A DNA stretch of 52,383 nt from a virus (Duplodnaviria > Caudoviricetes), in IMG/VR virus record IMGVR_UViG_3300033145_003438, positions 1 through 52,383 of that record. The stretch is one strand, 5' to 3'. A program made the position numbers and the translations under genes. Below are positions 7,055 to 31,217 of this stretch, in pieces. How positions within the stretch are numbered: position 1 is the first letter of the stretch; each line of letters begins with the position of its first letter. The notes below the pieces were generated by a model. That model was not told where the DNA came from. It made no database searches and was given only the letters and a program-made list of their open reading frames with translations.

Positions 7055-8077
7055 ATGGGAACAAATGACGAACAACATGAAGGACTCAGTGAAGAGGAAA
7101 TCGCTGCGCTTGAGGACGATGAATCAGAAGTCGAAGGGTCTGGGGGTGATGACGACAAGGATTTATCAGAATCCGATAAAGACGCTGATACAAAGAGCGA
7201 TCAGGACGTCAAGGACAAGGATGCAGACGGAAAGGATGAGGCGGGAGATAAGAAAACTGGAACAGATGATGTCTCTTCCACCACAGATGATGGGGCTGAT
7301 ACCGCCAAAAAAAGCGATGACGGATCCGGCGATAAAACAACGGATGGAGCAGATGCAGGGACAGGCGATGAAAAGGAAAAGACCGCACCGGAACAAAAAC
7401 CGTTTGTTCCAAAATTCACTGGACCCGATAAGGCCGTTGTAGACGATCTGGAAACAAAAGTAAAAGACGCCAAAGCAAAGTTTGACGACGCCGAGGCAAA
7501 GTTTGACGAAGGGGAAATCGACTACCAAGCCTTGGATAAAATGAAAGATGAATGGCGTGATGTCAAGGATGAATGGCGTGAGGCTAAGATCAAGTTCGAC
7601 GTTGCTCATAGCATGGGCGAAGACACCGACCGTTCAAAGTGGGAATGGGAACAGGACCGGTTTTATGAAGATTTTTCGGACTTTGATGCAAAGAACAACG
7701 CCACTCTTCACAGTGCGTTTATCGCTACAGTGAATAGGGTAATTCATACTCCAGAAGCCAGCAAAATGACCGATCGACAAGTTCTATTGAAGGCCAAAGA
7801 ACAGGTTGAGAAGGATCTGGGTATCGCGTCGTCTGCGAATTCAGACAAATCGAATTCAGAGAAGCAAGCGGCTCTCGACAAAGCCAAAAAGGGAAATGCC
7901 GACCGATCCAAACTCGGTGCAGACATCGGCGGTCTTCCTGCAGCTGAAGACGAAGGCACAGACGGTACAGATGAATTTGCATATCTTGACAAGCTGGAAG
8001 GAGAGAAATTTGAACTGGCTGTAGCCAAACTCTCCGAAGAGCAGCTTGAGAAATATATGGACCGCAAAGAAAAATAA
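7055..8077 (+). CDS. Capsid scaffolding protein
   Basis: Acidic disordered N-terminus, helical core, position just upstream of MCP. Confidence 0.65.
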   Translation: MGTNDEQHEGLSEEEIAALEDDESEVEGSGGDDDKDLSESDKDADTKSDQDVKDKDADGKDEAGDKKTGTDDVSSTTDDGADTAKKSDDGSGDKTTDGADAGTGDEKEKTAPEQKPFVPKFTGPDKAVVDDLETKVKDAKAKFDDAEAKFDEGEIDYQALDKMKDEWRDVKDEWREAKIKFDVAHSMGEDTDRSKWEWEQDRFYEDFSDFDAKNNATLHSAFIATVNRVIHTPEASKMTDRQVLLKAKEQVEKDLGIASSANSDKSNSEKQAALDKAKKGNADRSKLGADIGGLPAAEDEGTDGTDEFAYLDKLEGEKFELAVAKLSEEQLEKYMDRKEK

Positions 8078-8126
8078 GCGGTCAAAAGTTCTTTTACATA
8101 GTGTTTTGAAGGCGTCCAAGTAGGCC

Positions 8127-8162
8127 CCGGTTCCAATATAGCCGACCGGTTCCAACATAGCC
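8127..8162 (+). repeat. Tandem 17-bp direct repeat upstream of MCP
   Basis: CCGGTTCCAATATAGCC (8127-8143) and CCGGTTCCAACATAGCC (8146-8162). Confidence 0.75.
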
Positions 8163-8241
8163 AGGTGAGCGGATGAACGGACAGTAAGTGAAATGTACGG
8201 GATTTCTATAACCTAACTATTTGGAAACGGGAGGAATTAAA

Positions 8242-8459
8242 ATGGGACAAACAGTAGTGGGTACCGGTGATGCGAAAGCGATCAAGAAGTTTTCTGCTTT
8301 TCTCGCACTCGATGTACCGAAAAAAGCGTATTGGACTCGGAAGTTCATGGGGTACGGCGAAACGGCCTCCATGCCTATCCAGATGCTGAAGGAACTGGAA
8401 AGTGATGCTGGTGAGCAGGTTACGTTTGACCTGACCATGCAGATGACGATGCAGCCGGT
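8242..8459 (+). CDS. Major capsid protein exon 1 (N4-gp56/DUF4043 family); spliced CDS join(8242..8459,9234..10140), 374 aa
   Basis: GGAGG RBS; MGQTVVGTGDAKAIKK..ELESDAGEQVTFDL..QPV continues in frame into EGDDVLENREEDLKFY after intron removal. Confidence 0.9.
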
Positions 8460-8615
8460 TAACCTTAGCCGCCTTGCCGCGTAAGTGGCATTGCAAAGTG
8501 GGTGAAATGCTGGAAACCCCTAAGAGCCCGAAACACCACAACGCAGCTGGCAACGGCAAACGTGATGGTTTGAAAAGGATCGGGATTGGGCAATCAGCAG
8601 CGAAGGTTCATGAGA

Positions 8616-9032
8616 TTAAAGAGAGTTGAGGATATGGAGTTGTTGTTTAAGAGAATGCCTGAGTTCCAAAATGTTTTTGTCAAGTCCTTGACGGGCTGGT
8701 CTGGAGCCAAAGGTTTTTCTGAATTTTATAGCTACTTCCGCCTGCTCTCTTTTTATAACAAGATATGGCAATACGTCGTAAAGCAACTTAAGAGCTGTTT
8801 TCGGAGATGCACGCCATTCGTGCTTTGGTTTCCAATTTGGTTTATGCGAAGGGCTTTTTCGGTGATATACCTGACCTCCAAATTTATCATACAGCCATTC
8901 AATAAGATCGGCTTTTGTATTGGTTACTCCGAGAATAAGGAAATGGCGGTTTTTCTTTTTGTAAAAAACAATAGAAAAATGTCCCTCTCCATCAAGAATG
9001 CCAGCAAGATACGCAAGGTTGGTTTTATTCAT
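8616..9032 (-). CDS. Single-motif LAGLIDADG homing endonuclease, antisense within the intron
   Basis: LAYLAGILDGEGHF motif, ..VLPYLVIKREQA tail; ATG 9032 preferred, ORF open to 9053. Confidence 0.88.
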   Translation of the reverse strand: MNKTNLAYLAGILDGEGHFSIVFYKKKNRHFLILGVTNTKADLIEWLYDKFGGQVYHRKSPSHKPNWKPKHEWRASPKTALKLLYDVLPYLVIKREQAEVAIKFRKTFGSRPARQGLDKNILELRHSLKQQLHILNSL

Positions 9033-9038
9033 AAGTTG

Positions 9039-9067
9039 TTTATGCACTTTCAAGAGATGTTTGTCAA
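9039..9067 (-). promoter_or_regulatory. Putative sigma70 promoter for the antisense endonuclease
   Basis: TTGACA (9067-9062), 17-nt spacer, CATAAA (9044-9039), then 6 nt to ATG 9032 with no SD. Confidence 0.5.
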
Positions 9068-9233
9068 CAATCTCGTGATCAACGTTCAGAGACTATCTCT
9101 TCGGAGAGTACGGCCAAGCGGCCGGAAGTGCCCACCACCCCAACGGGGTGATGATATAGTCCCAACTGTATGGAAACATGCAGCAGCCAATAGTTTGGCG
9201 GGGTAGGGTTAGCGATCCTACTTGAAGGTGCTG

Positions 9234-10140
9234 TGAGGGCGATGATGTACTCGAAAACCGGGAAGAAGATCTGAAGTTCTACACGGATTCTCTTTATATC
9301 GATCAGCTTCGTGGTGGCGTCAACTCCGGTGGCAAGATGACCCGCAAACGGACCAAGCATAAACTGCGGAAGATTGCCCGTAGGCGTCAGTCCGACTGGT
9401 GGGGCAGGGTGTTTGACGAGCTCTTTTTCATGTACGGCAGTGGAGCAAGGGGCGTCAATCCGAAGTTCTTGTTCCCCACAGGTTACACGGGTTTTGCCGG
9501 AAACTCCTTTTCTGCTCCGGATACCGATCATATCCAGTATGGCGGCGGGAAGGTTAAGGCCACCGTCACGACATCGGAAACGATGAACCTGACCGAGATC
9601 GACAAGTTCCGGACCAAGGCCGTGATGATGGATGAAGTTACTGGAACAGCCGGCACGGACGGGGGTACCAAAAACCCGGCTATTCAGCCGATCATGGTTG
9701 ACGGGGAAGAGCACCATGTTTGTGTTATGAGTCCTTATCAGGCCTATAACGTGCGAGTTTCGACCACTGGCGGCCAGTGGCTTGATCTTCAGAAGTCTCT
9801 GGCGGCTGCCATCGGCACCAAGTCCAAGATCTTCAAGGGCGGTATGGGTATGCACAACAACGTGGTTCTTCATGAGCACAAATCGGTGATTCGATTTTCC
9901 GATTACGGTTCCGGTACGAATTTGCCGGCTGCCAGGGCTCTTTTCCTTGGAGAACAGGCCATGGTTTGTGCCTTCGGTTCTCCTGGCACCGGACTCCGGT
10001 TCGGGTGGCATGAGGAAACCAGGGACAATGGTAACCAGTTGATCATCACATCCAGTACCATCGTGGGGGTCGAGAAGGTTACTTTCAACGGCAAGGACTA
10101 CGGTGTCGGCGCGATCGATACCTACGCGACTCAGGCGTAA
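9234..10140 (+). CDS. Major capsid protein exon 2
   Basis: IDQLRGGV..GKMTRKRT..LRKIAR, GGMGMHNNVVLHEH, RALFLGEQA, WHEETRDNGN and DYGVGAID motifs. Confidence 0.92.
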
Positions 10141-10146
10141 TTAAAC

Positions 10147-10168
10147 GGGGGCTGAAAGGCCCCCTTCA
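10147..10168 (+). terminator. Hairpin after MCP
   Basis: GGGGGCT-GAAA-GGCCCCC with a weak U tail. Confidence 0.45.
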
Positions 10169-10221
10169 TAAATACTTTCATAGAATTTCAACGATAACTT
10201 TCAACATAGAGAGGTGAAAAA

Positions 10222-19703: not shown

Positions 19704-22700
19704 ATGCCTCTTTCTACCATAGAACAGTGGAATCAGGATCCAGAGTTTTCCCAACTTCCCTATCAACAAAAACGGCAAGTTATCGATAATTATTTCGACT
19801 CCCGGCTTGCTGATGATGAATACTTTTCCCTTTCCTATGATGACCAGGACAAGATTAAACACAATTTCTATGAAAAGGAAGTCGGTCCTGTTCCCATTGA
19901 GAGAACACCCCTGGTTCCAACGGTCCAAGAAGAAGAAAAGGGATTCTTTGGTCGGATCGGTGAAAAATGGAAGACCGGAGAGGCCCAGACCGAACTTGGC
20001 ATCCTGAGATCCCGTCAGTTAATGGGTGAAGACACGCCGGAGATCCGCGAGAGAATCGCCAAGGTTAAGAAGGATATGCCCCAAGGCGAAGAGGAAAAGC
20101 GGAACCTGTTTGAAAGAGCGATCGGTGCAGCGGCTGAAATGCTTCCCATCCAGGTAGAGGGCATGAAACAGGGCGCAAAACGTGGCATTGCCCTTGGTAC
20201 CGGCTTTGGGACTATTGCGGGTATTGCCGGTCAAGCCGGTCCACAAGTTGCTACACCTGAAGAAATCATCACCGTCCCTGCGGCATTTGCCGGTGGGTTT
20301 GGCGTGGGAATGGTTTCCGGGACCCTTGAGAACATCGGGAAGATTGAAGCCGGTCTTGCCTATGATGAATTGCTGGACCTGAAGGACGAAAACGGGAATA
20401 AAATCGATCCCAAGATTGCCAAGGCCGCGGCCGCTTCTGTAGGTGTTGTCAATGGTCTTATCGAAATGTCACAGATCGGGCTCCTCTTAAAAACCATTCC
20501 AGGCGGGAAGGCAATATTAACAGGTGCGATCAGAAAAACGATTACCGAAGCCGTTAAAAAGGGAACTCTAAAACAGGTAGCTTTAAGGGCCGGTATAAAA
20601 TACGGAGTATTTGTTACGGCTGAAACCGGGCAGGAGGTCTTACAGGAATCTACCAATATCCTGATGGCCGAGGTTGCAAAAAAGGTTGATCGTAATTTGG
20701 GGAATTCGAACATAGCGCCTGCCACCCGCCAGGAAATCATAAGCCGATTGGTGGAAACAGCCGAACAATCCGCATTAGCCTTCATGGCCATGGGTGCGCC
20801 GGGGACTGTAGTAACCACTGGCATGGATGTCCGGGCCGCCAGAAAGGACGCACGAAACGAACTTCTGGATCCTGGTGAAGAAGGCGCGGACGCCAGGGAG
20901 ATTTTAACCGGGGAAAAGCCGGTATCACCCGATATTGAGGCTGTTGATACCCTGGACGCTGAAGAACAAGCAAGGCAGTTCGATGAAGATGAGCTCGACC
21001 GAGTTCAATCCCAAGAGACACAGACTAAAAAACCGAAAATCGAAAAGCCCAAAGCCCCGTGGATTGCGCGATTGACCGATGCGCAACTTACCCAACGTAT
21101 TGAAAATCTTGAAAACAACAAACGAGTTGGCAGGTTAAATGATACCCAGGCCAGTGTTCTTGAACGCCTTCACACCGAAACTGAAAACCGCGGCATCAAG
21201 TCTGCTTCTGACTCTGCAGGCGTTTTCTTTAAAGAAGAGATCGAAGAAGAAAAGAAAGAAAACTCTGCGAAAGCAAAGGAAATATTTGAACAACCAACCG
21301 AGTTGTCCGGTAAATCGGCCCAGGAATCAGCGCAGGCCATTCTTGTAGAAGAGGAAATTTCCAAAAATCAGACCGCAAGGGATGAAGCCAAAAAAGATAA
21401 CAATCTAAAATATATCGCCAAAACTCTGAAAATTGACAATATCGATAACGCCTCCAACGAGGAACTATTACGAGCTAAAATGCAGTTGAAACACCAGGGC
21501 CGTGATGACCTTGTTCGGTCCATCGACAACGAATTCGATTCGCGGCGGTCCGCGAAAACAGAGGAGAGAGAAAAAAAACAGGCTGAATCTGAAAAGCAAT
21601 CACCACCGGAAATAGATATCAAAACTCCAAAAAAGGAAGAGCAAAAATACACGACCCTTGGCGGTGCGATCCGGAACATGGGTGGTATTAAAACCGGTGG
21701 GTTGAAAACGGACATCCTCTATCAGAATGATGCTGCTCAGAAAGGCAAGCTGATCAACGAAAAATCCGGTCTTGAGATCGAGAAAATGCAGAGTCAGCTT
21801 GTCGACGCTGGTTGGATGCTTCCCAGTGAAGACCTTACCCAGATTCTTTCTGAGAATCCGGACAGACTCCGAGAGGGTATGCTTGACGGAGAGGCCAAAA
21901 CCAAATGGCAGAAAGAACGCTCAGCAGAAAAACAAGCCCAGGAAGATGAAATTCCAGAACCAACAAAAGATGAGATGGAAGCCGATCCTTCACTGGCAGC
22001 GGCTTTCCCGGAATTAGCGCAACAATATGGAATAAAGACAAGCCCGGCAGAAAAACCCGAGGATCTTGATATCAGTTTTGATTTTGGGGCGAATACGGAC
22101 TCCGGTACCACATCGGCAGATATGGCGGGGGTGGCCACCACCGATACAAAAGACGATGACGGTGCTCATGAATATTCATCCACCCAGGTAAACATTCCTG
22201 AATCAGAGGCAAAAGAGATCAAGGAGTTTTCATCCCAGATACCGGATTCTGAACTGGCAGATGACGGGCGCGAAGATACTCCGCACATTACCGTAAAATA
22301 CGGGCTCCATACCAATGATTTGCGAAAAGCTCAGCCCCTTATAAAAGGGGTGGGACCGATCAAGGCGAAACTGGGAAAGGTTTCCATCTTTGAAAATGAT
22401 GATGAAGATGTTGTTATGGTGGAGATCGACAGCCCTGAACTGCATGCTCTCAATAAAAAGATTGCCGATGGTCTGGAACATACGGACACACATCCGGATT
22501 ACAAGCCCCATGCCACCATAGCGTATGTAAAAAAAGGTGAAGGGAAGAAGTATGGCGGGGATGATCGATTCGAAGGTAAAGAGATCACCCTGAACTCTTT
22601 GGTGTTTTCCGGAAAGGATGGAAGGGAAACAAAATATAACTTTAAAAAAAAGCCGAAATCTGCTAAGAAACCTACCGTGACCTCCGAAAAGGGGCCGGGC

Positions 22701-25700
22701 AAAACACCCACCACAAAAACCTCTCAAAGCCCGAAGGGTGGGGACAATCTTGAAGTGTTATATCAGCACGATACAAAGCTGTTTATTGACGACGATGGTA
22801 AAGAGTATCGTGCCGATGATGCTTCTGATTCTCTTTCCTTATTATCAGACAAAGAATTTGTTGAGATAACGGGTTATTCAAAAAATGATTTTAGGAGGAT
22901 GGGGGGGGCAATATATTTCATTCCAAAAGATAAGCCAGGCATAAACTCCATTCATCATATCTCTGGTGAGATTATATTAAGTGATGATTTAAAGAATAAT
23001 AAGAGCACTCTACAAAAAACATTAATTCACGAATTAACACATTGGGGGCAAATCCAAAAAAATGAGGCACCAGAAGCCTATTATGTTAATCCAGAAGAAA
23101 GTATCTCTGGTTTTATGGATTATTTTTCTGACCCCGCTGAAGTTAAGGCAAGATTTAATGCGGATGGGCGATCTGATGAAGAATACAACGCATTTATAAA
23201 AGATTTGAATTGGGCCAAAAGTACAGATTCCGGCAAGATTAAAGCTCCAGACATCGGTGAAATTCGAATTGAAACAAGAAAAAAATGGCGCATGCCATTG
23301 TCGTATATTAAACAGGAAATTAAGGCAGCTCAAAGAAAAAACGATTATAGAAATATCGCTCCCCGGAAGCTACAAAACGACATTGATGAAATAGAGGGAA
23401 TTGTCGGACATGAAACAAGCGACGCATTAACAAAGAAGGATGATTTACACGAACAGCTTGAAACGATTTACAACAGAGATCCAATATCCGATAGTGATAT
23501 ATCCAATATTAATGAGTTTTACTTCGAAACAAAACGTAAGTGGAACCTAAGAAGGCTTGGCTCCGCAGATAGAAAACTCCGCAACGATGAAATTGAATAT
23601 TATGAAATACCTGTAATGCGGGTTGAGGTTTTGGGTAAGAAAAATCCTCAAACCGGGAAAAGAGGAAGAATAAATCCAATAATCACTGAAGGTATCCTAA
23701 GGGACAAAACAGGTATCAAGGGAATTGCCGTAGGGCCAAATGAAATTAATATTGATTTAAACGCATCTAATGTAAAAAACATATATAAGCTTAACAAGAA
23801 AACCAAAAAGTTTTTTCTCCCTAACCCCACAATCTCACCGGAAAAGGTGAGCAAAGATGCTACCCCTGCATCAAAACCCACCGTAAAAACCAAAGAATTA
23901 TCCCCCTCTGTTGTTTCGATACAGGGCGCCACACAACCCAAACCATCCAGAAAGAAAAAAGAAGACACCCTAAAATTTGGCGAAACCATCGGAGGCTCTA
24001 AATACGACAAAGCCCAAGAGCGCCTTTCTCTTTCTTCGATCACGGATATGAACGAGCGGGAGAGACATAAAAACATCGTAAAGAGAAATATCTGGCCAAA
24101 GCCTGATTATGTAAAGATGGTTGAAAGTGGTCATTCTCCTGAAAACATGTACTTGATCAAGAAAGTAATCGATTCAATACCGGTTCGACCGGAAAAGGTT
24201 GAAGATCAGGAACTGTTCATACAGGAAGTGGGCAGGATTCGAGATATCGTTGAACAGATCAAACCCGGTAATGATATTCAGGGCCTTTTCGGTAAAATAT
24301 TCACGGAGGAATACCATTCTCGGTCTGGTTATTCAAAAGGCTGGACGGAAAAGGGCGGGCCTGTTGCCCACATGCTTAAACCCAAATTTCTGAAAGCCGT
24401 TCAAATCAGCAATTACGATATGTTGACCGCCAAACGAAAAGTTGAAAAGACCGGTTTCCCGGCAAAACAGGAGGCATGGAAGCAGGGCATTGAGATTGTA
24501 GAGCGTGGTTTTGGCGATAATGCCACATGGTCTATTTTTCGGCGCAAGGGTGGCAGAATGGTCGAAGTCCTTGGCAAGGGCTTTAAAACCAAAGAAGAGG
24601 CCCAGAATCACCTCACAGACGTTCTGCAACCGAAATTGAAAGCATCGATGAAGGGAAAGGGCCGGTTTAAGAAGCCCATGCTTGACCACATCACGCGAAC
24701 AGGGACCGACTATCGGGATGGGAAGGATATTACCACTGACGATATCCTTGAAACATTCGGTTTCCGGGGTGGTGAATTCGGTAAATGGTTGAACGAAAAG
24801 AATCAGCAGGAATCCCTGAATCATGCCTATGACGCTTTCATGGATCTTGCAAACATTCTGGACATCCCTCCCATGGCCATAAGCCTGAATGGTACGCTTG
24901 GTATCGCCTTCGGTGCCAGGGGATCGGGGGGGGCGGCTGCGCATTATGAAGGCGATAAGGTCGTTATCAACCTTACGAAACTATCCGGCGCTGGATCGCT
25001 GGCCCATGAGTGGGGGCATGCTTTTGATGATTATTTCGGAAAAATGGCAAAATCGCCACAATCCGGAAAGTATATGATCACTCCCCTGTCTGCAGGAAAA
25101 ACAGGGAAAGAATCAACCGTCCGGCCGGAAATGCTCAATGCATGGCTGAACGTCAGAGGCCGGATTGCAAAACGTGATGAAACCAAAAAAGAGGCCATTG
25201 CTCGGGTTGAAAAGGAAATAAAGAAAAGCAAGCGATATACCAAGTCCTGGCTGGACGGGATCAGGACCGAGTTAGAAAGAGATGATACCGCATACAGTAA
25301 GAAGAAAAGGGCTGCAACCGAAAGTGAGTTAAAGTCCTGGGATAAATTGACGGAGGAAATCCTTGCCGGAAAGCATAAACCCGTTCTTGATGAAAATGTC
25401 CGGTCAAAATACACCATGCCGGCAGTCAATGACTTTTATAAGGGCGTCAAAGGCGTTCTTCCTGCCTCTGATACGAGAACAAGCCTATCGGCCAACATCA
25501 ACAGCCTTCAGCGCAACGTAGAGCACCTGGCAGAGATTAAATCGGATAAAGCAAAACCACGTCAGATCACAACCAATTTCAAGGGCAAGGCAAAAGAGCT
25601 CGGGAATGTTGAATACTGGGGCAATCCCCATGAACTGTTCGCCCGGGCGCTTGAATCCTATGTTGATGATCAGATAAGAGAACAACCCAACAAAAGCCAG

Positions 25701-28700
25701 TACCTCGTTCACAGCACTCAGAACAGCCTGTACGGTGAAGACATCTCTCCATATCCCATGGGTGTAGAACGTGTTGCCATCAACAAGGCGTTTGACGGGC
25801 TTTTTGATGTTCTTGAATCAAAAGAGACCGATAGGGGCGTTGCTCTCTTTTACAAGCGTCGCAATCCTCAAAAGTATAGTGTTCTCAGCAAGAAAAAACT
25901 TGAAGCTGCTATCACCGGCATATCTGGTGCATGGGAAAACGCCCCTGATATCGTCGTTCTGCAAAAGCAAAACGAGTTGCCAGAAAAAATACAGAAAATG
26001 GCCGATGGTGATATCGTTGACGGTGCACACTATCAGGGAAAGATTTTCTTGGTAGCCGAAAATATGAAGGACACCAACTATGTTGTTGAGGTTCTTCTCC
26101 ATGAGGCATTTGGCCACTACGGTATTCGTGGCGTCCTTGGGAAGAACTTAGCTCCCGTTTTAAGAGACGTTTATATCGCCAAACGAAAAGAGGTTCAAGA
26201 GATAGCCCAGGAATACGGCTTTGATCTCAGTGAAGAATCCGGAAGAGCACTGGCCGCCGACGAGTGGCTTGCCAGGGAAGCCCAGAAGAACCCCGAATCA
26301 AAATGGATTGACCGCGTTATCTCAGCGATCCGCGCCTTCGTCCGGAAATTCTACCCCAAGTTCAAGATGACCGACAAGGATATCCGGAAGATACTGGCCG
26401 ATGCAAAATCTTATGTGACTAAAGGAAAGCGAAAATCACATAAAAGCCGCATACCTTCATTCTCCAAAGACAAAAAGGCCGATAAGTGGCACTCCCAGAT
26501 GGCCAACTTCCTGAACATGAAGCTGACCAACGGACCCGCAAAACAGATCAAGTCTAATCTTCAGGCGTGGGCGAAGAAAGGTTTGATCAAACAAGAAGAA
26601 TTGGAATGGTCCGGATTGCTTGACTGGTTGGATTCCAAGAGCAAGGTCAACACATGGAATGCCGTTGCGGACAAAGATCGTTTTACCATCGAATTAAGGG
26701 AAGATGGCCGGTATTACCTTTATGATACCGATCTTGGACCTGATAATACGGCGGCAATGCCGGATTATGAAAAGTTTGAAGACGCCATTGCAAGCGCGGA
26801 GGATGTTGTTGATACCCGTAGGAACAAGACAATAAAACTTAATTTCAAGCCCAATAAACCAGGGAAGGTCAAAAAGATCGATACCCTGAATTACCTGAAA
26901 GATAACAATGTCACGTTGCAGGAGGTTCTGAAAGACAGTGAACTGTGGGTGGTGTGGGATGGTGAAGAAGAAACGTATTTTGAAACACACCAAGAGGCGC
27001 TTGATTACGGGCAAGAAATAGGCGCACCGCCAGAAGACATTTTTTATAAAGAAAGTAAGATGTCTGATGCGACCAAGTTTTCCCAATACACACTTCCCGG
27101 TGGAAAAAATTACAAAGAACTGCTTTTGACATTGCCGGCGAATTCCAAACCACAAACAAATGCGCTTAATGATTTTATTCGTCGGATGGAAAATAAGTAT
27201 GTTGGTACAGAACGACATTGGCGAGTTGCCATGAACGATCAAGAAGCAGATGAGTTTGAATCATTGGCAGAAGCCGAACGTTTAGGTTTTTCGACAGACA
27301 GCCAAGAATATAAGTCCTCCCACTGGCAAGAACCCAACGTATTAGCACACGTCCGATTCAACGAACGTACCGATGCAGACGGAAACAAGGTGTTGTTTAT
27401 TGAGGAGATACAGAGCGATTGGGCGTCCGAAGGTCGGAAGAAGGGGTTCCGTGGAAAGTTTAGGGGCCAAGGTTTTACTAAAAGCAAGGCTGTTTCTGAT
27501 GCTTTAAAACGTTCAAATATGGTTCCAAACGCTCCGTTTGTCGGGAGCACACAGAAATATGTGATGCTTGCGGTAAAGCGAATGGTAAGGCACGCCGCTG
27601 AAAACGGTTTCGACAAGATAGCCTGGACAACGGGACAGATACAATCAGATCGATACGATCTAAGCAAACAACTTGAGTCTATCACATATGCTCCCGATTC
27701 GAAGAAGGGGTTTCCGGGAATACTTCGAGCATATCCATTATCTCCAAATGAAGCGCCTATCATAAAACGAATTTCCGATGAAAATGAACTGGCTGTTGTT
27801 ATCGGAAAGGGTCTGGCAGAAAAAATCATTGATGGCGATAGAGATATCAGAGGTAAGGATCTCAAGGTAGACAGCCCCGGTATGCGCGGATTTTATGACA
27901 AGATTATCCCTGCTGCGGTTAATAAATTTTTCAACAAGGCCGCTTGGGGCAAGGCGAAGGTTGAGACAATAAAAATACAGACTGAAATAGGATCTGAGGG
28001 GTTTGAGATTCCCCAACGGGTTGAAGATGTCTGGTCTCTCCCACTCACCCCAAAAATGAAACAGAAAGCCCTCCGTGAGGGCATGCCCCTTTTTAAAAAG
28101 CGGGACCGCACCACCAAAAAGAGCGATACAGGATCCGGCATCCTTCCAGCGGAAGTCGAACAGCGCATGGAAGCATCCAGAGGCGTTCCGAAAACGACCC
28201 TGAAAGAAAAGGTCAAAGAGCAGATCGTAGAGATCCGCAGGCAGAGGCAGCATTTCCCCAAACTAAAGACTATCGAGGATAAAAACCTACGCCACCGTCT
28301 TGCCGATATCCTCCGGAGACATCAGGAAGTACCTGAATCGGTCAAGCAGCAGACAATAAAATTCTTGAGCTCATTTACCCAGGATCTATCCAAGCAGGAC
28401 TATGAAGCCTTTCGGATGCACATCATTCTGGCCGATATGAAACGGGATATCGACAAAGGCCTTTTGGATGAAAAATCAAAGCTGCCGTTCGGTTTTTCAT
28501 CCATAGACGATGTTGAAAAAGCCTTTAAGGGTTATCAGGAACTGGCAAACAACAATCCGAAGATCAAAAAAGCCCTGAAAAAAAGAAATGATAAGGTCAA
28601 TGAGATCAAGCAGAAACTGGTTGATGCCAAACTTCTGAAAAAAGAAGTGATGGAGGATGAAGACTATTTCCATCATCAAGTATTGATGTTCTGGGATGAT

Positions 28701-31217
28701 AAATACGGTCTTGCTACAGGTTCGAGCGATGTTAGAACCCACTGGCGCGGATGGATGGCAGCAAGGAAGGGATCTGCCCTTGATTACAACACCGAGTACA
28801 TTGAAGCCGAATTTATGGCCATATCTCAGCAGATGGCCCAGTTGGAGGCCGTTGCCACCCTGAAACGGATCAAGGACGAAGCGGATGTTTATTCTCAGAT
28901 AAAGTCCCATGCCAAGGCCGCGAACTTCAATAATTTTTACAAGAAACTTAAAGATGCTTTCGGGCATGATGTTAAAGACACCGACGATGATCCTTTAAAG
29001 CCATTCAGGGCCAAGATCGCCATGTCCAACATGAAGCTGGCAGAGATGGCCGCGAATGGGAAATTACATTACGATAGCGAATGGCAAGAGATTGTAGATG
29101 CTTTGAACAATTCTTATTCGTTCTGGAAAGAGAATAAAGACGACATCCCCGATATACCAACTCCGGGTGTAGATGATCCGCGTTGGTTTCACTTTTTGTC
29201 TCATCTACTCAATACACAAGCACCGGGGGCAAACTGGGCCGCTACCATATTCAAAAGTATCAAAGGCCGAGATACGACCATTCAGAGCACCCTTGGCGGT
29301 GATTTCCTGACCTACCGCAATTTAATCCCCAAGGGATACAAACAGTGGAAACCAGACCCCGGCAAAGGATGGTTCTGGGCCAATACGGTTGCCGATAACG
29401 CCCTTCAAAGAATGATCGACGGTGAACTGAACCCGAAAGATGTTGAATTCCGGAAGATCATCGCAAAGGGCAGGGATCTAATATGGATCATCCCCGAGGG
29501 GCTTGCCGACACTCTGGATAAATTCATTGATTATGGGGATCCTTCACATATCGGGAAAGTGGCGGATAAAGCTCTTTCTATGTGGAAACAGTGGATCCTG
29601 TTAAATCCCTTCTCCGTGGTTCGATACAACCTTAATAATATGTCTGGTGACCTCGATGCGGTTCTGGCCTATGCACCCGGAATAGCCGGGAAGAAATACG
29701 CACATCAGGCCATGAAGGACCTCTGGAAGTGGCACAGAAGAAAGAATCTGCCGGCCAACGTGCAGAAAGAAATTGATGAAGCCCGGAAACTGGGAGTGAT
29801 CGGATCCGGCTTTTCCGTACAGGAAGTGGACGATGCCCTGAAAATTCTTTCCATGGATAAGATCGTTCGGGATGTCATTCTCGACGAAAAGCCCAACTGG
29901 TTTAACCCGAAGACCTACGGAGAAAAATACTGGAAATATGTTCAAATGTTTACGGCCCTGAGAGAGAACGTCCTCCGGTTGGCAGCCTACAGGTGGTTCC
30001 TCGAAAATAACAATAAACAGCTTTATGGTGCATCCAAACCGGAAGAGATCGATGCAATAACAGATCCCCACGAAAAGGCCGCGAAACTGGCCCGAGAACT
30101 CTTGGGGGATTACGGCAACCTTTCAAAGACCGGCGAGTGGGTCCGGAAGAGACTCATACCTTTCTATTCCTGGCTTGAAATCAATACCCCCCGATATGTC
30201 TATCTGATGCGAAACTCGAAATATGAGAACAGAAAAGCGGCATCTGCTACCGGTAAAATGGCAATGGTGGGTGGTAAAAAGGTTATCATGTCCTCTGCAA
30301 GTTTGGCTTTAAGGGCATCGATGCTCTATGGCGCCGTAATGCTTTGGAACATGACCATGTTTCCAGACGAAGAAAGGGAATTGGGCGAAACCGGCAGAAA
30401 TCAGCTTCACATCATTTTGGGAAGACGGGAGGACGGCTCAATCATTTCCATACGATTTCAAGGCGCTCTTTCGGATGCGCTTTCATGGTTCGGCATGGAA
30501 GATTGGCCTTATGATGTCAAAGACCTGATTGAAGGCAAAAAGACTATTCTTGATAAGTTGAAAGAAGCCGGCAAGGGCGTGTTTAATCGTACAATTCATG
30601 GACTCAGGCCAGAAATTAAAATGTTTGCCGAGCAGATCAGCGGGAAGAGTTACTATCCAGATGCTACCAGAGGGCTTCCGATCCGTGATCGCCTCGAACA
30701 CGCCATGAAGACTTTCAAGCTGGACCAGCTTACCGGATATAGGGCGGTGATCGGACGTCCGGGACGGGGAAAGAATCCCGATGCTCCAAGAGCGGTACAG
30801 GTCATGCAACACCTTGTCAACGATCTGCAGAGAATACTTGTCTATTATGCGGATCCCGGGATGCTGGCCTATTATGACACACGCGGGATGGTTTTCGATT
30901 GGTTGGCCAAAGAGGGTGACGAAAAGCGGTACGGTGGCAGACCCACGAGCAAGGCCAATTCATTTTATTGGTATAAACAAGCCATGAAATTTGGGGACCT
31001 TGAAGCAGCCCATCGATATTTAACAAAATACTACGAAAAGGGTGGAACGGAAAGATCAAAAATTACTTCAATCCGAAACGCACACCCCTTATCCAGTATT
31101 CCGAAGATGAGAAGAAAGGCCTTCCGGGATTCCCTGAAGCCGGACCAGGATGAAGTCTTAAAAAGAGCCCTTAAATGGTACAAAAAAACATATTTAGAAA
31201 AGGAAGGTGAGAAATGA
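19704..31217 (+). CDS. Giant polyvalent internal virion protein (2H phosphoesterase, zincin HExxH domains, LPD5/LPD1-like, EEIQSDW domain)
   Basis: HITV/HATI 2H motifs; HELTH, HEWGH and HEAFGH; FGETIGG and FGFRGGEFG..AFGARG; SHW..AHVRF..FIEEIQSDW. Confidence 0.85.
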   Translation: MPLSTIEQWNQDPEFSQLPYQQKRQVIDNYFDSRLADDEYFSLSYDDQDKIKHNFYEKEVGPVPIERTPLVPTVQEEEKGFFGRIGEKWKTGEAQTELGILRSRQLMGEDTPEIRERIAKVKKDMPQGEEEKRNLFERAIGAAAEMLPIQVEGMKQGAKRGIALGTGFGTIAGIAGQAGPQVATPEEIITVPAAFAGGFGVGMVSGTLENIGKIEAGLAYDELLDLKDENGNKIDPKIAKAAAASVGVVNGLIEMSQIGLLLKTIPGGKAILTGAIRKTITEAVKKGTLKQVALRAGIKYGVFVTAETGQEVLQESTNILMAEVAKKVDRNLGNSNIAPATRQEIISRLVETAEQSALAFMAMGAPGTVVTTGMDVRAARKDARNELLDPGEEGADAREILTGEKPVSPDIEAVDTLDAEEQARQFDEDELDRVQSQETQTKKPKIEKPKAPWIARLTDAQLTQRIENLENNKRVGRLNDTQASVLERLHTETENRGIKSASDSAGVFFKEEIEEEKKENSAKAKEIFEQPTELSGKSAQESAQAILVEEEISKNQTARDEAKKDNNLKYIAKTLKIDNIDNASNEELLRAKMQLKHQGRDDLVRSIDNEFDSRRSAKTEEREKKQAESEKQSPPEIDIKTPKKEEQKYTTLGGAIRNMGGIKTGGLKTDILYQNDAAQKGKLINEKSGLEIEKMQSQLVDAGWMLPSEDLTQILSENPDRLREGMLDGEAKTKWQKERSAEKQAQEDEIPEPTKDEMEADPSLAAAFPELAQQYGIKTSPAEKPEDLDISFDFGANTDSGTTSADMAGVATTDTKDDDGAHEYSSTQVNIPESEAKEIKEFSSQIPDSELADDGREDTPHITVKYGLHTNDLRKAQPLIKGVGPIKAKLGKVSIFENDDEDVVMVEIDSPELHALNKKIADGLEHTDTHPDYKPHATIAYVKKGEGKKYGGDDRFEGKEITLNSLVFSGKDGRETKYNFKKKPKSAKKPTVTSEKGPGKTPTTKTSQSPKGGDNLEVLYQHDTKLFIDDDGKEYRADDASDSLSLLSDKEFVEITGYSKNDFRRMGGAIYFIPKDKPGINSIHHISGEIILSDDLKNNKSTLQKTLIHELTHWGQIQKNEAPEAYYVNPEESISGFMDYFSDPAEVKARFNADGRSDEEYNAFIKDLNWAKSTDSGKIKAPDIGEIRIETRKKWRMPLSYIKQEIKAAQRKNDYRNIAPRKLQNDIDEIEGIVGHETSDALTKKDDLHEQLETIYNRDPISDSDISNINEFYFETKRKWNLRRLGSADRKLRNDEIEYYEIPVMRVEVLGKKNPQTGKRGRINPIITEGILRDKTGIKGIAVGPNEINIDLNASNVKNIYKLNKKTKKFFLPNPTISPEKVSKDATPASKPTVKTKELSPSVVSIQGATQPKPSRKKKEDTLKFGETIGGSKYDKAQERLSLSSITDMNERERHKNIVKRNIWPKPDYVKMVESGHSPENMYLIKKVIDSIPVRPEKVEDQELFIQEVGRIRDIVEQIKPGNDIQGLFGKIFTEEYHSRSGYSKGWTEKGGPVAHMLKPKFLKAVQISNYDMLTAKRKVEKTGFPAKQEAWKQGIEIVERGFGDNATWSIFRRKGGRMVEVLGKGFKTKEEAQNHLTDVLQPKLKASMKGKGRFKKPMLDHITRTGTDYRDGKDITTDDILETFGFRGGEFGKWLNEKNQQESLNHAYDAFMDLANILDIPPMAISLNGTLGIAFGARGSGGAAAHYEGDKVVINLTKLSGAGSLAHEWGHAFDDYFGKMAKSPQSGKYMITPLSAGKTGKESTVRPEMLNAWLNVRGRIAKRDETKKEAIARVEKEIKKSKRYTKSWLDGIRTELERDDTAYSKKKRAATESELKSWDKLTEEILAGKHKPVLDENVRSKYTMPAVNDFYKGVKGVLPASDTRTSLSANINSLQRNVEHLAEIKSDKAKPRQITTNFKGKAKELGNVEYWGNPHELFARALESYVDDQIREQPNKSQYLVHSTQNSLYGEDISPYPMGVERVAINKAFDGLFDVLESKETDRGVALFYKRRNPQKYSVLSKKKLEAAITGISGAWENAPDIVVLQKQNELPEKIQKMADGDIVDGAHYQGKIFLVAENMKDTNYVVEVLLHEAFGHYGIRGVLGKNLAPVLRDVYIAKRKEVQEIAQEYGFDLSEESGRALAADEWLAREAQKNPESKWIDRVISAIRAFVRKFYPKFKMTDKDIRKILADAKSYVTKGKRKSHKSRIPSFSKDKKADKWHSQMANFLNMKLTNGPAKQIKSNLQAWAKKGLIKQEELEWSGLLDWLDSKSKVNTWNAVADKDRFTIELREDGRYYLYDTDLGPDNTAAMPDYEKFEDAIASAEDVVDTRRNKTIKLNFKPNKPGKVKKIDTLNYLKDNNVTLQEVLKDSELWVVWDGEEETYFETHQEALDYGQEIGAPPEDIFYKESKMSDATKFSQYTLPGGKNYKELLLTLPANSKPQTNALNDFIRRMENKYVGTERHWRVAMNDQEADEFESLAEAERLGFSTDSQEYKSSHWQEPNVLAHVRFNERTDADGNKVLFIEEIQSDWASEGRKKGFRGKFRGQGFTKSKAVSDALKRSNMVPNAPFVGSTQKYVMLAVKRMVRHAAENGFDKIAWTTGQIQSDRYDLSKQLESITYAPDSKKGFPGILRAYPLSPNEAPIIKRISDENELAVVIGKGLAEKIIDGDRDIRGKDLKVDSPGMRGFYDKIIPAAVNKFFNKAAWGKAKVETIKIQTEIGSEGFEIPQRVEDVWSLPLTPKMKQKALREGMPLFKKRDRTTKKSDTGSGILPAEVEQRMEASRGVPKTTLKEKVKEQIVEIRRQRQHFPKLKTIEDKNLRHRLADILRRHQEVPESVKQQTIKFLSSFTQDLSKQDYEAFRMHIILADMKRDIDKGLLDEKSKLPFGFSSIDDVEKAFKGYQELANNNPKIKKALKKRNDKVNEIKQKLVDAKLLKKEVMEDEDYFHHQVLMFWDDKYGLATGSSDVRTHWRGWMAARKGSALDYNTEYIEAEFMAISQQMAQLEAVATLKRIKDEADVYSQIKSHAKAANFNNFYKKLKDAFGHDVKDTDDDPLKPFRAKIAMSNMKLAEMAANGKLHYDSEWQEIVDALNNSYSFWKENKDDIPDIPTPGVDDPRWFHFLSHLLNTQAPGANWAATIFKSIKGRDTTIQSTLGGDFLTYRNLIPKGYKQWKPDPGKGWFWANTVADNALQRMIDGELNPKDVEFRKIIAKGRDLIWIIPEGLADTLDKFIDYGDPSHIGKVADKALSMWKQWILLNPFSVVRYNLNNMSGDLDAVLAYAPGIAGKKYAHQAMKDLWKWHRRKNLPANVQKEIDEARKLGVIGSGFSVQEVDDALKILSMDKIVRDVILDEKPNWFNPKTYGEKYWKYVQMFTALRENVLRLAAYRWFLENNNKQLYGASKPEEIDAITDPHEKAAKLARELLGDYGNLSKTGEWVRKRLIPFYSWLEINTPRYVYLMRNSKYENRKAASATGKMAMVGGKKVIMSSASLALRASMLYGAVMLWNMTMFPDEERELGETGRNQLHIILGRREDGSIISIRFQGALSDALSWFGMEDWPYDVKDLIEGKKTILDKLKEAGKGVFNRTIHGLRPEIKMFAEQISGKSYYPDATRGLPIRDRLEHAMKTFKLDQLTGYRAVIGRPGRGKNPDAPRAVQVMQHLVNDLQRILVYYADPGMLAYYDTRGMVFDWLAKEGDEKRYGGRPTSKANSFYWYKQAMKFGDLEAAHRYLTKYYEKGGTERSKITSIRNAHPLSSIPKMRRKAFRDSLKPDQDEVLKRALKWYKKTYLEKEGEK

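Follow-up and report, generated by a model that had tools for sequence, protein, structure and literature searches.

Only two cases of a homing endonuclease gene placed antisense to its own intron, LittleE and I-DirII, were found in the full-text literature, a coverage that leaves out subscription journals. In the phage LittleE, a spliced intron of the major capsid gene (gene 13) carries the I-CreI-like gp14 on the bottom strand, and splicing was shown by reverse transcription PCR (RT-PCR) (Pope et al., 2013, PMC3706429). In the ribosomal DNA (rDNA) group I intron of Didymium iridis, the gene of I-DirII is antisense and has a promoter of its own (Johansen et al., 2006, in Edgell et al., 2011, PMC3073962). 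For phage introns, a review of the group I introns of bacteria names mostly GIY-YIG, HNH, PD-(D/E)xK or EDxHD enzymes, and in a word search of it antisense, opposite and orientation did not occur (PMC3984707). The locus described here lies in the viral record IMGVR_UViG_3300033145_003438, a provirus of 52,383 bp that was analysed over its full length and is called the window below. Its major capsid gene is interrupted by a group I intron, and a LAGLIDADG homing endonuclease gene lies within that intron on the opposite strand. This layout is not new, as it was published once, in LittleE, and the window is a further example of it. For the locus as a whole, the best explanation, to which we assign a probability of about 0.6, is a mobile IA2-like intron of the capsid gene with an antisense cassette of promoter and endonuclease gene in the loop of helix P6. 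The features concerned are the following:

8242-10140, + strand: whole capsid gene, split by the intron
8242-8459, + strand: exon 1 of the major capsid protein (PF13252, 24.3 bits; phrog_334, 2.3e-11), ending at U8459 of the P1 U.G pair
8460-9233, + strand: group I intron, subgroup IA2-like, 774 nt, omega-G at 9233
9234-10140, + strand: exon 2 of the major capsid protein (PF13252, 115.4 bits; phrog_334, 2.4e-62), starting at U9234
9032-8616, - strand: gene of a single-motif (I-CreI/I-MsoI-type) LAGLIDADG homing endonuclease of 138 aa, opposite in sense to the intron and lodged in its P6 loop
9067-9039, - strand: candidate sigma-70-like promoter, with TTGACA at 9067-9062, a 17-nt spacer and CATAAA at 9044-9039, followed after 6 nt by the ATG at 9032-9030

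The capsid gene was recognized in two parts. Positions 8242-8481 correspond to the first 67 positions of PF13252 and phrog_334, and the open reading frame (ORF) from 9337 to positions 101-375. A search with the Rfam model RF00028 gave a match on the + strand at 8889-9183 (39.4 bits, E 3.9e-8, model positions 1-253) and a second piece at 8508-8610 (19.5 bits). By blastn, the core halves 8495-8639 and 9075-9226 matched known phage group I introns, among them Aeromonas phage D3 (83% over 101 nt, E 6e-20) and the Twort nrdE region (76%, E 9e-12), and the stretch between the two halves gave no blastn match. In order to place the helices, a constrained minimum free energy (MFE) fold of 8440-9260 was computed with the insert forced unpaired. 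The canonical helices P1-P6, P7.1, P7.2, P8, P9, P9.1 and P9.2 were recovered in this fold, and P7 and P10 were read directly from the sequence:

8457-8461/8466-8470, + strand: P1, GGUUA with UAGCC, U8459.G8468 at the 5' splice site
8475-8490, + strand: P2
8498-8503/9130-9135, + strand: P3
8508-8513/8594-8599, + strand: P4
8518-8590, + strand: P5 and its extension
8608-8617/9069-9078, + strand: P6, TCATGAGATT with AATCTCGTGA, 10 bp with one G.U
9091-9095/9157-9161, + strand: P7
9096-9107, + strand: P7.1, UCUC with GAGA
9111-9124, + strand: P7.2, CGGCC with GGCCG
9136-9150, + strand: P8
9166-9183, + strand: P9
9186-9199, + strand: P9.1
9201-9223, + strand: P9.2
9234-9238/8463-8467, + strand: P10, UGAGG with CCUUA, the pairing with the 3' exon

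The intron thus has a U.G pair in P1 at the 5' splice site, a terminal G (G9233) and a P10 with the 3' exon. The hairpins P7.1 and P7.2, a mark of subgroup IA2, stand between P7 and P3'. In an alignment to the capsid intron of Vibrio phage 1.232.O, a P6 hairpin of 5 bp was found at the same place, and the insert of the window therefore sits in the P6 loop, the region to which a sequence-only reading of this DNA had assigned it. The stem, ORF and promoter strings named in that reading are all present in the sequence at the positions it gave, and the stem reappeared in the constrained fold.

In the Vibrio phage itself (MG592596.1 7184-8205), the annotated coding sequence (CDS) of the major capsid protein stops short. 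Downstream of it there is an unannotated group I intron core closely like that of the window, followed by an HNH nuclease gene on the sense strand. In the window, an imperfect direct repeat (9/12), GGTTCATGAGAT at 8605-8616 and CTTTCAAGAGAT at 9047-9058, flanks the endonuclease ORF and its -10, and the second copy can pair locally with P6' (GAGAU 9054-9058 with AUCUC 9070-9074). This repeat may be a relic of an originally short P6 and of the entry of the cassette.

The minus-strand ORF in the insert ends at 8616 and has 145 codons from TTG 9053 or 138 codons from ATG 9032. All 10 homologues in the protein collection begin at the residue equivalent to ATG 9032. Its stop codon, 8618-8616, is part of the 5' strand of P6. 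The LAGLIDADG motif of the predicted protein reads LAYLAGILDGEG and its terminal residue is acidic. A match to phrog_5046 (2.6e-27) was obtained, a family that is labelled "HNH endonuclease" but is LAGLIDADG-like. When the window protein alone was compared with the PDB, the match to I-MsoI and I-CreI was weak (1.2e-5). A profile of 55 family sequences matched I-MsoI at 1.9e-21 and I-CreI, over its full length, at about 6e-10. Residues Y8, A10, G11, D14, G15, E16, G17 and K94 are invariant in these 55 sequences. In the alignment, E16 stands opposite the metal-binding Asp of I-CreI, and K94 opposite Lys98 of that enzyme. The AlphaFold (AF2) model of the protein had a predicted local distance difference test score (pLDDT) of 94.6 and the element order alpha-beta-beta-alpha-beta-beta-alpha (H3-16, E17-24, E29-38, H41-51, E54-58, E70-74, H77-90), and the top match of Foldseek was I-CreI (E 1.3e-7, template modelling (TM) score 0.80). 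The earlier claim of an antisense LAGLIDADG gene inside a group I intron of the capsid gene is supported. The converse assignment, in which the ORF on the + strand would be the true gene and the LAGLIDADG frame an artefact, was ruled out by homology, fold and conservation.

A model of two copies gave an ipSAE of 0.77, versus 0.00 for the best of three controls, with residues 3-16 at the interface, a partner pLDDT of at least 87 and contacts that agreed to 100% between runs. Of the proteins solved as pairs, 20 of 30 attain the mark that this model passes, and of those solved as single chains, 1 of 23 does. The homodimer through the motif helices is a model prediction, and its high score may be a memory of the solved I-CreI dimers. 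The endonuclease gene has a GC content of 0.39 versus 0.46 for the window, and this low value would count for a foreign origin. Its nearest relatives (P0001-P0006) have 42-52% protein identity, and a scan of metagenome contigs with the single protein revealed no close relative.

The window has a structural block on the + strand that encodes terminase, portal, head and internal virion proteins, and its integrase is on the minus strand. All long ORFs taken as genes in this block, from 1 to 35857, are on the + strand. The next minus-strand ORFs start beyond 36569, and the shorter minus-strand ORFs overlap + strand genes. Because the genes of the structural block are all on the + strand, the endonuclease gene needs a promoter of its own. 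The sequence-only reading had held that homing is uncoupled from late transcription, and this was upheld in so far as the gene must be transcribed independently of the late operon on the + strand. Among sequencing runs, no RNA run was listed for 8200-10200, and the one DNA run listed contained a fraction of 0.06 of the sampled words.

The candidate promoter predicts, from its spacing, transcription from A9032, the first base of the endonuclease ATG. No Shine-Dalgarno (SD) sequence of the AGGA/GGAG type lies between the candidate and this ATG; 15 of the 23 long ORFs of the window have an SD. In order to assess how often such an arrangement arises by chance, the 1924 ATGs on both strands of the window were searched for a two-hexamer match of at least 10/12 with the -10 ending 4-9 nt upstream. 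Two ATGs had one, and when the distance was narrowed to 5-7 nt the ATG of the endonuclease gene was the sole match. The earlier description of TTGACA and CATAAA, 17 nt apart and 6 nt before an ATG lacking an SD, is thus confirmed, and the arrangement is rare by chance. The -35 stands directly next to the 3' strand of P6, so that the cassette takes up the whole loop with no spare bases. These observations make a private promoter of the endonuclease gene likely, and a leaderless mRNA, judged from the spacing alone, is plausible. In LittleE (L194, 1382-1473), GATAAT is found 7 nt before the annotated TTG start of gene 14, which is likewise a leaderless-like spacing.

The predicted spliced reading is ...MQPVEGDDVLEN..., with the junction MQPV/EGDDVLEN, a Val codon split as GT/T, and the host frame restored. 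For comparison, 80 loci that encode relatives of exon 2 (55-70% identity) were fetched, and 78 of them also contain exon 1. The two exon parts are contiguous exactly at the predicted junction, that is intron-less, in 76 of these 78 loci, and the junction falls within the conserved motif MQP(V/I)EGD. From the intron structure and these intron-less relatives we infer the ligation of the exons to ...MQPV-EGDD.... Since 76 of the 78 relatives lack an intron at the exact junction, the intron occurs only sporadically among its capsid relatives, as a mobile element would, and it is probably mobile. The remaining two loci, L245 (2094-2427) and L266 (2109-2451), have group I introns 12-18 codons further downstream (RF00028, 46.7 and 38.2 bits), and this second insertion site indicates that the conserved capsid stretch has been invaded more than once. 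No relative of the window endonuclease was found in the 80 capsid loci, L245 and L266 included.

The endonuclease belongs to a large family: 395 relatives came from viral contigs, 34 from genomes and 441 from metagenome contigs. RF00028 was searched in 77 viral records of this family. At 13 loci the 3' core of the intron was on the strand opposite to the endonuclease gene, just upstream of or overlapping its start, and at 20 loci intron and gene had the same sense. With an nhmmer profile of the 3' core, which was built from the antisense members and is hence biased towards them, antisense cores at most 250 nt upstream were found in 38 distinct genes of viral and metagenome contigs, the gene of the window included. 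Exons of a major head protein (phrog_1357) were present on both sides or on one side in 7 of 9 antisense loci examined. A tblastn search with the exons of the window gave no match in the antisense relatives, and a shared capsid family was ruled out, as their head proteins belong to phrog_1357 and that of the window to phrog_334. By these sequences, the antisense layout is widespread in uncultured phages, mostly in capsid genes. The antisense orientation, which had been regarded as unusual, is real, but its rarity did not hold: gp14 of LittleE has the same layout and antisense members are common in the endonuclease family.

Two observations on the wider family were made in the same searches. 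In L020, L021, L064, L071 and other loci, a stretch of 2-3 kb contains 3-4 matches to the group I intron core, all on the same strand, which suggests multi-intron capsid genes. I-CreI-like relatives with ~30-32% identity (E 1e-12 to 1e-10) are encoded by gene 64 of Mycobacterium phage DotProduct and by the Gordonia phages Hans, Ailee, Bibwit and others, where they lie under CDSs annotated as DNA methyltransferase. This case recalls the "hidden endonuclease" insertions in phage methylases, in which the enzyme is called HNH (PMC11855218).

The most interesting result concerns the strand that is read as capsid pre-mRNA. None of the 19 Leu codons and 7 Ser codons of the endonuclease gene is TTA, CTA or TCA, and because of this the frame that mirrors it on the + strand is open:

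8586/8610-9206, + strand: "mirror" open frame, 198 codons from ATG 8610 or 206 from TTG 8586, codon-antisense to the endonuclease gene

This frame continues through P6', P7, P3', P8 and P9 to a stop at 9204-9206. The probability of zero TTA, CTA and TCA codons was about 0.005 from the codon usage of the window (23 long ORFs) and 0.023 from a cruder background based on the flanks. Among the 38 distinct antisense genes, 22 had no stop in the mirror frame, 31 had at most two and 7 had 7-10; from flanking genes, 3-13 TTA, CTA and TCA codons per gene were expected. The zero-stop genes are that of the window and those of L007, L010, L011, L014, L018, L020, L021, L031, L032, L036, L037, L038, L055, L121, L127, L130, L131, L135, L137, L141 and L144. 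The 38 genes, whose GC content averages 0.37, had a mean of 2.0 stops in the mirror frame; for the other two antisense frames the means were 9.1 and 13.5. The 12 sense-oriented genes had 4-11 mirror-frame stops (mean 8.8) and none was stop-free. Grouped at 60% identity, the antisense genes formed 20 clusters. All members had at most two such codons in 15 clusters, one cluster was mixed (0 and 9) and four had 7-10.

In the 31 antisense genes with an open mirror frame, CTA, TTA and TCA made up 1%, 6% and 2% of their codon families, versus 29-53% in the sense-oriented genes (n=12). Other A-ending codons (ACA, CCA, GGA, AAA, etc.) were used at 17-84% in the same 31 genes, which ruled out a general depletion of A-ending codons as the cause. 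We regard the avoidance of TTA, CTA and TCA in the antisense members as real. Shielding from Rho was considered as a reason and was without compositional support, as the sense RNA over the cassette is neither C-rich nor G-poor: its C/G ratio was 1.01 in the 31 open genes and 0.81 in the window. The mirror frame is also no continuation of exon 1 or exon 2, as in the window the exon-1 frame stops at 8482-8484 and the phase differs from both exons. In only 4 of the 22 zero-stop relatives, the frame continues for more than 350 nt into the downstream exon.

One explanation of the open strand is that the mirror ORF (8610-9206) is a second real or translated gene, forming with the endonuclease gene an overlapping pair on two strands. 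The avoidance is specific to the antisense orientation and to those three codons, it extends over the clusters counted above, and an in-frame ATG stands between -24 and +39 nt relative to where the frame begins at its 5' end in 22 of 22 zero-stop genes, all of which would fit such a pair. Eight mirror ORFs, however, had no Pfam or PHROG match, so that identity with a known protein was rejected. SD-like motifs before the mirror ATGs are inconsistent, and in the window they stand only 1-3 nt from the ATGs. The zero-stop frames end at varying points in the 3' core of the ribozyme, where translating ribosomes would hinder folding, and 7 of the 38 antisense genes have 7-10 mirror-frame stops. A second gene is somewhat unlikely, although it fares better than the other alternatives considered below.

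A broader proposal combines the open frame with the promoter, and we hold it only tentatively, at a little less than even odds. Selection would keep the capsid pre-mRNA strand free of stops in the mirror frame, either because ribosomes read the sense RNA across the cassette or because of a second protein. In addition, a private promoter independent of late transcription, possibly active already in the lysogen, would let the prophage attack the intron-less capsid genes of incoming relatives. A coding constraint on two strands would be undescribed for mobile introns, and no description of a stop-free sense strand over an antisense endonuclease gene was found in the full-text literature, subscription journals again lying outside the coverage. 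Should the avoidance be borne out by a larger survey that takes phylogeny into account, it would point to intron RNA, regarded as non-coding, being translated or being under some other constraint that depends on the frame.

Several points weigh against the explanation of the locus as a mobile intron with an antisense promoter-endonuclease cassette. Both RF00028 scores (best 39.4 bits) are under the gathering score of 50, as expected because the insert of 451 nt in P6 splits the core. The window protein scored 20.1-20.3 bits against PF00961, under the cut-off of 23.1; 37 of the 55 family members matched this model at E <= 0.01. A homodimer of the I-CreI type is expected to have a pseudo-palindromic target of ~22 bp. 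No pseudo-palindrome was seen at the exon junction, where the best symmetry within +/-10 nt was 5/11 and the background mode is 5-6, and the homing site could lie elsewhere or be very asymmetric. With regard to the promoter, positions 1 and 6 of the -10, CATAAA, are not T (4/6), and a consensus scan listed no minus-strand promoter in 8000-9700 because it demands T at position 6 of the -10. The sigma-70 consensus may moreover not be that of the host. No endonuclease relative is closer than 52% protein identity for a comparison of promoter DNA.

The relatives add to these points. Most antisense relatives (43 of 61 loci) have an SD and a leader. As a rule their SD precedes the ATG by 7-9 nt and a -10-like hexamer is found 19-36 nt upstream, and in some of them the -35 overlaps the reverse complement of the conserved J6/7. 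Their enrichment for two-hexamer promoters was weak (9 of 38 versus 5.6 expected from shuffles). The leaderless arrangement is not conserved, similar spacing having been seen only in a few distant relatives (L134, L186). Among the sense-oriented relatives, the enrichment was strong (8 of 12 at a match of at least 9/12 versus 1.4 expected from shuffles). Sigma-70-like promoters with matches of 10-11/12 were seen in the sense-oriented L053, L061, L065, L070 and L155, 28-35 nt before the ATG and inside the intron. Judged by these sequences, a promoter of its own is a habit of the endonuclease family, and the leaderless spacing would be particular to the window and perhaps a few distant members (L134, L186). 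The term "leaderless" used in the sequence-only reading therefore stands in part. The spacing, the ATG and the missing SD agree with it, but it follows from spacing alone, the -10 is weak, and most relatives have an SD with a leader of 20-35 nt.

These points bear first on the possibility that the promoter-like string is a product of chance or non-functional. The gene would then be silent, or expressed by rare read-through from distant minus-strand promoters, and would be a recent or decaying passenger. The weak -10 and its absence from the consensus scan agree with this, as do the facts that the match was found post hoc and that the enrichment in the antisense relatives was not significant. 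The state of the gene argues for the opposite. The ORF is intact, every residue invariant in the family is kept and the fold is confident. A comparable promoter match occurred at only two of the ATGs searched, and the cassette fits P6 on both sides, from the -35 that adjoins P6' to the stop codon inside the 5' strand. Moreover, there must be some form of expression for an antisense gene that has stayed intact across at least 20 sequence clusters. We consider a chance promoter unlikely, and slightly more so than a second gene on the + strand.

It is less likely still that the gene is expressed but not leaderless, with transcription starting further upstream, for example from a -35 over the reverse complement of J6/7, and with an A/U-rich leader without an SD. 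Relatives have TTGACG or TTTACG overlapping the reverse complement of the J6/7 core and leaders of 20-35 nt, and TGAACG and TTGATC are present in the window at the equivalent place. Neither of these has a usable -10 at 16-18 nt, however, and the best other upstream two-hexamer score was 7/12. In addition, the leaders of the relatives contain an SD, which that of the window does not. A mainly regulatory minus-strand transcript, acting as antisense RNA that lowers splicing or capsid synthesis, was a further idea of the sequence-only reading. It found no support and is very improbable. Any such transcript would match about 420 nt of the intron in full complementarity and, with no terminator-like site 3' of the gene on the minus strand, could extend into the 5' half of the intron and exon 1. 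However, the late operon is off in the lysogen so that nothing is there to repress, and the clear constraint on the endonuclease at the protein level is not needed for such a role.

For the explanation preferred here, the mobile intron with its antisense cassette, the following course is proposed. The ribozyme would splice itself from the late capsid pre-mRNA and restore the ...MQPV-EGDD... reading. Its P6 loop carries a compact cassette, complete in itself, on the opposite strand, in which a candidate host-type promoter stands directly before the I-CreI-like gene of 138 aa. The endonuclease cannot be made from the late transcript and would most likely be transcribed from TTGACA-17-CATAAA, with the start at or next to the A of the ATG, and translated at a low level from a leaderless or near-leaderless mRNA. 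The homodimer would then cut intron-less capsid alleles of related phages near the site coding for MQP(V/I)EGD, and the intron would spread when the break is repaired with the copy that carries it, a course of homing presumed from the family. The antisense placement would both uncouple endonuclease expression from late transcription and keep the ribosomes of the endonuclease off the ribozyme RNA. The locus offers a clean case for how a homing endonuclease is expressed without use of the transcript of its host gene. It also raises the question of whether a prophage constitutively expresses an endonuclease to convert or exclude related superinfecting phages. Elsewhere in the structural block, an ORF of 3837 codons was noted at 19704-31217 (+ strand).

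Compared with known systems, the intron resembles the td, nrdB and sunY introns of phage T4. These are IA2-type introns in which the ORFs of I-TevI-III are looped out of the ribozyme core and are expressed separately from the host gene. They are sense-oriented GIY-YIG or HNH genes in metabolic genes of a lytic phage. The window thus shares with T4 the IA2-type phage intron, the looped-out endonuclease ORF and a control of its expression apart from the host gene, and differs in the orientation of the ORF and in the class of the enzyme.

The enzyme itself is closest to I-CreI, I-MsoI and I-CvuI. Like these, which have about 140-170 aa, it is of small size and has a single LAGLIDADG motif and the same fold (TM 0.80), with profile E-values from 1.9e-21 to about 1e-9. 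Both groups keep an acidic residue as the last of the motif and the Lys equivalent to K98, and the dimer of the window protein is predicted. The catalytic acid is Glu in the window family and Asp in the I-CreI group. The genes of I-CreI, I-MsoI and I-CvuI are sense-oriented in introns of chloroplast 23S rRNA, whereas that of the window is antisense in a capsid intron. Its predicted target would be a protein-coding site without a visible palindrome.

I-DirII, an enzyme of the His-Cys box family, is like the window enzyme in that its gene is antisense to its group I intron. It differs in its setting, which is eukaryotic nuclear rDNA, and in its expression, which involves a pol II promoter, a spliceosomal intron and poly(A) (PMC3073962). 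The ShiLan-type hidden endonuclease insertions in phage methylases (Arsenault et al., 2025, PMC11855218) share with the window an endonuclease gene that overlaps a host-gene frame kept stop-free. There, the two frames are on the same strand, no intron is involved and the host frame is translated into the host protein (PMC11855218). In the window, the open frame is on the opposite strand and inside an intron that is removed.

The nearest system remains LittleE. In the GenBank annotation, gene 14 is opposite to the two-exon gene 13, and gp14 has 30.5% identity to the window protein over 85% of the query (E 7e-4). The homology is distant, the capsid family is another one and the hosts of LittleE are Actinobacteria. 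In addition, gp14 has 177 aa with an extra C-terminal part, as compared with 138 aa in the window. The account of this intron in the LittleE paper describes no promoter, leaderless start or stop-free sense strand (PMC3706429), and the mirror frame of gene 14 has two stops, which at 58% GC is uninformative. Despite these differences, LittleE and the window are alike in their essential layout, as both are temperate phages with a group I intron in the capsid gene and an I-CreI-like LAGLIDADG gene on its bottom strand.

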